Shown here in pieces: positions 4,195-4,360 of a stretch of 4,779 nucleotides of DNA (its first letter is position 1; each line of letters opens with the position of its first letter). Made by a program: the position numbers and the translations under genes. The stretch is taken from assembly GCF_965641715.1 (NCBI RefSeq), contig NZ_OZ282459.1; one strand, 5' to 3'. The stretch is from Escherichia coli (GTDB lineage Bacteria > Pseudomonadota > Gammaproteobacteria > Enterobacterales > Enterobacteriaceae). The notes beneath the pieces were generated by a model. It searched no databases, had not been told where the DNA came from, and saw only the letters and a program-made list of their open reading frames with translations.

Positions 4195-4360
4195 CAGACC
4201 GTATGCATCTGGCTGCATGACCATGCAGCCGGGTAAAATTTATCTGTCACGGACGGGGCGGTGTATCGGGTGGTTTGTTGCCGGTTTTACCTGACTGCCG
4301 CCCCGTTTGTGACGAACCTGTCCGGAGCGGTGCGGGCAACGGATGTTATGGTAAATAGGT
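4195..4360. other. cer-like Xer multimer-resolution site: core XerC arm GGTGCGGGCAA (4329-4339), 6-bp central region CGGATG (4340-4345), XerD arm TTATGGTAAAT (4346-4356), plus upstream accessory region
   Basis: Core compares with ColE1 cer (GGTGCGTACAA-TTAAGGGA-TTATGGTAAAT): XerD arm identical, XerC arm 2 mismatches, central region 6 bp as in psi/dif-type sites. A perfect 9-bp inverted repeat ggctgcatg-ac-catgcagcc (4211-4230) lies about 100 bp upstream, where cer carries its accessory-protein sites. Confidence 0.65.

Follow-up and report, generated by a model that had tools for sequence, protein, structure and literature searches.

The DNA analysed here (the window, 4779 bases) is the whole of a circular ColE1-type plasmid and showed 100% identity to the E. 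coli plasmid NZ_CP122725.1. Its replicon was recognised by a match to RNAI (1222..1324, minus strand; Rfam RF00106, 95.6 bits), corresponding to the ColE1-type (RNAI/RNAII) origin expected of a carrier of cer-type sites; this origin belongs to the module that moves with the cargo described below. On the plus strand, the mobilisation block (2004..4194) comprises mobC, the relaxase gene with mbeB and mbeD nested within it, and a small ORF at 4072-4191. The block, which moves with the accessory sequences of the Xer site, was delimited by identity to relatives and was 95-100% identical to L002, L004-L006, L008 and L009, and 72-78% identical to plasmid pVP446. The small ORF encodes a product of 39 amino acids (MRLFNVIETVLNCLYMALEIWDWLEKHFPVFKAFIRILA) and stops 4 bp short of the accessory region; it is kept in relatives and is annotated as hypothetical in OW848912.1.

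The cargo runs over the start of the record and was defined from ORF calls. Its first part (4357..4779, minus strand) contains a DUF2158-like ORF of 61 amino acids at 4395-4580, whose name comes from the annotation of a database match (H41), and the 3' end of a 133-amino-acid ORF (4622-4779). The second part (1..1219, minus strand) contains the 5' part of the latter ORF (244-1), a ParA-family ATPase gene assigned by profile match (241-1125) and the divergent RNAII promoter region (about 1140-1219). The ParA-family gene overlaps the 133-amino-acid ORF (244..1 / 4779..4622, minus strand) by the four letters ATGA. When the cargo proteins were compared with defence-system and NCBIfam profiles, we obtained only weak ParA-family matches, the product of 241-1125 scoring below the curated cut-offs, and no match for the 133- and 61-amino-acid proteins. 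A ParA-family operon is an odd cargo for a high-copy ColE1 plasmid. Upstream of parA, at about 1165-1200, repeats of the GTCAACGC, TTGACGTT and TAACGTCAGCG type overlap the RNAII promoter, and this promoter is unlike the usual ColE1 one.

The base composition of the cargo is foreign (G+C of 0.34-0.42 versus about 0.6), and at its edge the G+C content fell from ~0.53 to 0.34-0.42 over the 200 bp past the XerD arm. About 30 plasmids of several different backbones carry the ParA-like gene and the 133-amino-acid ORF with at least 99% identity, and the mcr-5 plasmid pSE11-03671 has the same cargo module as the window. A more distant homologue of the two main cargo genes (77%) was found in Yersinia ruckeri on pYRKMM821_1, a 16.9-kb plasmid with a different type of replicon, where it adjoins another parA. 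No strict Xer core adjoins the cargo homologue in the Yersinia plasmid, the sole loose dif-like site being about 2.4 kb off, which indicates that the cargo genes did not start out as a Xer-bounded cassette; they came to belong to a core-to-nic module. We also considered a transposon or IS insertion as the source of the cargo and rejected it because there were no terminal inverted repeats, flanking direct repeats or target duplications at the cargo edges (4357 and about 1140-1220) and no transposase ORF in the cargo according to the ORF list.

A separate observation concerns the replicon. In plasmid pCFS3246-3 (NZ_CP053652.1), the same cargo leads into the first part of RNAII, after which, at the equivalent of 1247-1373 of the window, the RNAI region is present once more; this second copy belongs to a different origin and is 87% identical. 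This tandem duplication resembles a recombination footprint within the replicon.

The Xer core, GGTGCGGGCAA-CGGATG-TTATGGTAAAT, is located at 4329-4356 on the plus strand. It is present in a single copy in the window and had 0 matches in 200 shuffles. Comparison with the cer, parB, mwr and psi records resolved it into two 11-bp arms of the XerC/XerD consensus around a centre within the usual 6-8 bp. The predicted XerC-binding arm GGTGCGGGCAA (4329..4339, plus strand) agrees with ColE1 cer at 9/11 positions and with pSC101 psi (GGTGCGCGCAA) at 10/11; the central region CGGATG (4340..4345, plus strand) is 6 bp long; and the predicted XerD-binding arm TTATGGTAAAT (4346..4356, plus strand) is identical in ColE1 cer, CloDF13 parB and pJHCMW1 mwr. 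An earlier, sequence-only reading of this DNA had described a XerD arm identical to that of ColE1 cer, a XerC arm with two differences and a 6-bp central region in place of the 8 bp of cer. All three points agreed with the ColE1 cer core taken from NC_001371, GGTGCGTACAA-TTAAGGGA-TTATGGTAAAT, the two differences falling at positions 7 and 8 of the XerC arm.

The view of the 6-bp spacer as a special feature did not survive this comparison, since the spacers of CloDF13 parB (GGGATG) and mwr (CAGATG) are likewise 6 bp long. The same length is found in pSC101 psi, whose XerC arm is one position away from that of the window. We scanned one genome per species with the pattern GGTGCGNNNAA-N6-8-TTATGGTAAAT and recovered 109 sites, with spacers of 6 bp (51 sites), 7 bp (39) and 8 bp (19), 6 bp thus being the commonest length in this unfiltered set. 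Among the sites with a recognisable cer-type accessory motif, 17 had 7 bp, 12 had 6 bp and five had 8 bp, so that the 8-bp spacer was a minority in the unfiltered and motif-filtered counts alike. The exact core of the window was the most frequent variant in the scan (12 sites versus 10 for the ColE1 core) and again the most frequent in the motif-filtered set. The site is of a known kind, even its core sequence variant is common, and these counts show the 6-bp spacer to be an ordinary one rather than an exception.

Large, apparently chromosomal contigs of Enterobacter sp. Ag1, Mangrovibacter and Escherichia sp. ESNIH1 (L016, L022 and L026) carry cores of the form GGTGCGCGTAA-7 bp-TTATGGTAAAT with no cer-type accessory motif and with related downstream sequences (AGCCTATGCTAATGTCCGCTA...); these may represent a conserved Xer site of the chromosome or of an integrated element. 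Besides mwr, pJHCMW1 (NC_003486.1) carries at about 450-515 a further half-site, ..GGACAA-CGGATG-TTATGGTAAAT, whose XerC arm is degenerate. Downstream of it comes CCAGCTGATTGGCAGGTACAAAAAAAGCC, the sequence also found after the cores of plasmid p16-6773.3 (L126) and of L047.

On the XerC side of the core, the stretch 4195..4328 (plus strand) aligned with the accessory sequences of ColE1 cer, CloDF13 parB and pJHCMW1 mwr and would, by homology, be the side bound by ArgR and PepA. The alignment contains the conserved blocks GGTAAAATTTATC and GGGTGGTTTGTTGCC and is nearly free of indels from the ARG box to the core. A palindrome resembling an ARG box, CTGCATG-AC-CATGCAG (CTGCATGACCATGCAG; 4213..4228, plus strand), is in register with the ArgR box of ColE1 cer and is a putative ArgR site; it aligned with TTGCATAGGTATTCATAC in ColE1 and GTGCATAGGCATGCAT in CloDF13. 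The box is thus about 100 bp from the core, as in cer, and the spacing between the two is kept within 2 nt.

The alignment with ColE1 also revealed a putative Pcer-like promoter (4213..4239, plus strand), with a -35 hexamer CTGCAT (4213-4218), a 15-nt spacer and a -10 hexamer TAAAAT (4234-4239), the hexamers occupying the positions of those of ColE1 (TTGCAT-15-TAAAAT). A spacer of 15 bp is characteristic of Pcer (PMC5935869). The promoter was missing from a generic sigma-70 scan because the rule of that scan requires spacers of 16-18 nt. Downstream, the segment 4245..4314 (plus strand) was predicted to fold into an Rcd-like RNA hairpin (MFE -44.4 kcal/mol, z -3.7), and 0/200 shuffles folded as well. 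Across 15 diverse sites, 12/22 pairs showed compensatory changes, the covariation score was 0.50 versus 0.08-0.16 when the partners were slid, and 94% of the cells were paired versus 38-58% with slid partners; the G-U pairs agree with the plus strand. Such covariation is what would be expected for an RNA of the Rcd type. An internal Pcer with its 15-bp spacer and a structured Rcd transcript can thus both be recognised at the sequence level, and the segment 4195-4356 appears, by every sequence criterion, to be a complete cer-type multimer resolution site.

The XerD arm of this site is also the place at which related plasmids cease to be related. Eight relatives sharing the mobilisation block and the accessory region have the same arms around a 6-bp spacer (CGGATG, GAGATG or GGGATG), and these cores are followed by eight different unrelated sequences, each starting at +1 past the XerD arm. 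The cargo had been said to start within about 25 bp of this arm; relatedness to the relatives with other cargo in fact broke at 4357, the first base past it. The core is thus an exact junction, and a three-way comparison (below) placed a crossover inside a 30-bp interval at the core (4327-4356), in agreement with the relatedness switch at the Xer core in the model of Tran et al. (2012). Among PLSDB matches to 4100-4620 of the window, 57 of 60 evenly sampled from 592 rows ended at 4350-4361. We then compared the scan sites with each other: 113 pairs were at least 90% identical over 120 bp upstream, 85 of these had unrelated downstream DNA, and in 79/85 the identity past the XerD arm ran for 0-2 bases, i.e., the chance level, these counts being of pairs and not of independent events. 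When the scan sites were clustered, each of 10 accessory types was found next to between 2 and 9 downstream sequences unrelated to one another, and each of six downstream types next to two accessory types. The pattern is thus a general one.

The search for a second Xer-like site bounding the cargo covered both strands and spacers of 6-8 bp with up to 6 mismatches in 18 positions; it returned six matches versus a shuffle mean of 7.0, thus none above chance in the plasmid, the far end of the cargo included. The proposal that the cargo had been gained by Xer recombination can be kept in part: the core is an exact junction, but what moved was more than the cargo by itself. Because the second junction is the oriT nick, the exchanged units are core-cargo-origin-nic on one side and nic-mob-accessory-core on the other.

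This second junction lies in the oriT segment TAAGCCAGTATACACTCCGCTA (1982..2003, minus strand), which is identical to ColE1 1462-1483 and contains TAAG/CCAG. The ColE1 nick, which we take to be CTGG/CTTA at ColE1 1469-1462 as reportedly described by Varsaki et al. in 2003, would place the nick of the window between 1985 and 1986 on the minus strand. The segment was recovered as a switch point in a three-way comparison. From 4329 through the cargo and the origin to 2003, pVP446 (NZ_CP121364.1) departs from the window at a single mismatch and a single gap over about 2450 bp (~99.9% identity), whereas its mob/rop/accessory block is only 72-78% identical. From 2004 through the mobilisation genes and the accessory region to the core, pVP446 matches p16-6773.3 (NZ_CP039863.1) at about 100% identity; in the latter plasmid, the core of the window is followed by a different cargo. 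The informative sites among the three plasmids placed the crossovers within 4327-4356 (30 bp, GC plus the core) and within 1982-2003 (22 bp).

The same two switch points divide the window from L002, L004-L006, L008 and L009, which are 95-100% identical to it from 2004 to the core but only 63-90% identical in the origin block 1220-1950, bar one universally conserved stretch. In six of the seven relatives compared, there were 12-43 mismatches in 1866-1981, 0-1 in 1982-2003 and 1-3 in 2004-2120. A second switch was thus found at the oriT nick, as in the model of Tran et al. (2012), the nick position being the presumed one. The interval 1208-1220 (3' end of RNAI / start of RNAII) had also been a candidate for the second junction and was rejected: windowed identity showed that the origin block is merely more diverged, and 1208-1220 is only the start of BLAST-detectable origin homology because the mismatch switch sits at the nic. 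We likewise rejected the derivation of the pVP446 XerC arm from a window-type parent, because p16-6773.3 combines the same backbone and the same GGGCAA-CGGATG core with a different cargo; since its backbone already has this core, the pVP446 event is compatible with a canonical crossover. Parents of the window type and of the p16-6773.3 type are both represented in PLSDB, and the data do not tell the parent plasmid from the product.

The two crossover intervals correspond exactly to the identical tracts of 30 and 22 bp shared by the parents, so that the junctions could have been produced by RecA-dependent homologous recombination at short tracts of perfect identity, Xer and the relaxase having no catalytic part. 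Efficient RecA-dependent exchange needs a minimum length of identity, and a tract of 30 bp is close to it. We nevertheless regard this explanation as unlikely. The same parents share further identical tracts in the origin (85, 56, 31, 29 and 28 bp) that were left unused, and plain homologous recombination is made less likely by the longer of these (85, 56 and 31 bp). At least seven independent comparisons led to these two points again, and the core junction recurs in 79/85 pairs across many species. Many of these pairs are also at least 90% identical over 120 bp of accessory DNA, where homologous crossovers should scatter.

Lower still in probability, and in our opinion very unlikely, is that the sharp edge at the XerD arm only reflects the end of a constrained element, the cargo having arrived by illegitimate recombination or transposition and only the insertions that spared the site having survived. 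The core is functionally constrained and the composition of the cargo is foreign, as such a scenario supposes. Illegitimate joins would however be expected at varied distances from the arm, yet 8/8 relatives and 79/85 pairs diverge at +1; the cargo lacks the terminal inverted or flanking direct repeats of a mobile element, and the matching switch at the nic is left unexplained. Finally, a cassette located between two Xer sites and moved by two Xer events, as in Acinetobacter pdif modules, would account for the exact Xer core at one cargo edge but is hardly credible, as the search returned no second Xer-like site above chance in the plasmid and the other edge of the exchanged unit is the oriT nic.

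We thus favour, with fairly good confidence, the view that 4195-4356 is a cer-type site for multimer resolution, functional by its appearance, in a plasmid of the ColE1 family, and that its core forms, together with the oriT nick, the two fixed points of reassortment. By homology, the host XerC and XerD would bind the 28-bp core, and ArgR and PepA the ~135 bp on the XerC side, limiting recombination to directly repeated sites on one molecule, while the internal Pcer would produce the Rcd-like RNA. The plasmid could be viewed as two modules, module A (nic, in some cases rop, mobilisation genes, accessory sequences and core) and module B (core, cargo, RNAII/RNAI origin and nic). Cer-type sites act as a topological filter: they resolve direct repeats within one molecule and do not fuse molecules. 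Fusion was assigned to the relaxase at the nic for this reason. In the most likely route, the relaxase would first fuse two co-resident plasmids at their oriT sites during mobilisation; the cointegrate would then contain two directly repeated Xer sites, and XerCD, ArgR and PepA would resolve it at the cores, leaving hybrids with one junction inside the nic and one inside the core. The catalysis by Xer and the relaxase and the order of both steps are what we infer from the positions of the junctions. The window plasmid would accordingly combine a module A of the Klebsiella/Salmonella type with an AT-rich module B carrying a ParA-like operon.

The role of the core as a module junction is a mechanism already present in the literature, of which the window is a clean, base-resolved example. 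An oriT/Xer model of small-plasmid evolution was reportedly put forward by Zakharova and colleagues in 2002 (MGG 267:171). As excerpted in PMC10454011 and PMC6764390, Tran et al. (2012; AAC 56:1821) place a variable region between oriT and a Xer site and have Xer recombination resolve the cointegrates formed at oriT. Ares-Arroyo et al. (2021) noted that the rop-relaxase region has oriT at one end and cer at the other, with recombination through both (PMC8683028).

Two deposited sequences could be related to multimers. L001 (NZ_CP157101.1, 9144 bp), deposited as a single plasmid, represents a head-to-tail dimer, though a partial one, of the window plasmid. L129 (CP125155.1, 10226 bp), also deposited as a single plasmid, consists of a dimeric 4052-bp plasmid and an additional 2.1-kb segment that encodes a protein with a primase C-terminal domain and a TIR-domain protein. 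Both may be either real multimers or assembly artefacts. CP125155.1 had been considered as a cointegrate intermediate and was dropped, since a dimer of the 4052-bp plasmid with a 2.1-kb insert is uninformative in this respect.

One feature of the dataset does not follow from the proposed mechanism. Within one accessory type (at least 90% identity over 120 bp), the cores can differ in the sequence of the spacer, in its length and in the XerC-arm triplet, for example TACAA with TTAAGGGA, TAAGGGA or TGCGACG (7 or 8 bp) versus GGGCAA with CGGATG (6 bp). Near-identical accessory sequences with unlike cores were observed for instance in L012 (pVP446) and L126 (p16-6773.3) versus L015, L092 and L102. 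Movement of the whole core is not predicted by canonical strand exchange because an exchange inside the central region cannot shift the XerC arm. It is conceivable, though rather improbable, that all 28 bp of the core, with the XerC-arm triplet and the spacer length, go with the XerD-side (cargo/origin) module in a minority of the exchanges. The same pattern could arise if the triplet, being under weak constraint, mutates fast and some parents are missing from the sample. If these are real footprints, they would point to Xer-independent processing of Holliday junctions in natural plasmids (branch migration into the XerC arm, then cleavage by RuvC or replication) or to some other mechanism targeting the core. 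Xer-independent resolution of Holliday junctions has been reported for cer and mwr (PMC2699498).

Resistance genes such as qnrB19 and mcr-5 are found on small ColE1-type plasmids. The reassortment of such plasmids by halves that join at the Xer core and the oriT nick would explain why replicon typing disagrees with relaxase typing, and it helps to trace the movement of cargo among backbones.

One of the closest known systems is ColE1 cer. It shares with the window the XerD arm, 9/11 positions of the XerC arm and a homologous accessory region that contains an ARG box, a Pcer whose spacer is 15 nt long and a hairpin of the Rcd type, as well as the position in the plasmid, after the mobilisation genes and before the cargo (exc and colicin E1 in ColE1). 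The two sites differ in the spacer (CGGATG, 6 bp, versus TTAAGGGA, 8 bp) and in the XerC-arm triplet (GGC versus TAC), and their accessory sequences are only about 70-76% identical. The mwr site of pJHCMW1 and parB of CloDF13 share with the window 6-bp spacers of the form NNGATG (CAGATG and GGGATG, respectively), the XerD arm and homologous accessory sequences, whereas their XerC arms are different (GGTGCACGCAA in mwr and GGTACCGATAA in parB). The mwr site requires ArgR and PepA, and the reaction catalysed there by Xer halts at the Holliday junction (PMC2699498).

As in the pdif modules of Acinetobacter, a Xer site forms the exact edge of a module on a small plasmid, but those modules have two flanking Xer sites whereas the window combines one site with the oriT nic. 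The works of Tran and of Zakharova and their respective colleagues reportedly deal with qnrB19 and restriction-modification plasmids. In contrast to these, the window has a ParA-like operon as its cargo, and PLSDB contains both parental types; in common with the oriT/Xer model (Zakharova et al., 2002; Tran et al., 2012), ColE1-type plasmids exchanged blocks whose junctions lie at oriT and the Xer site and are seen here at base resolution.
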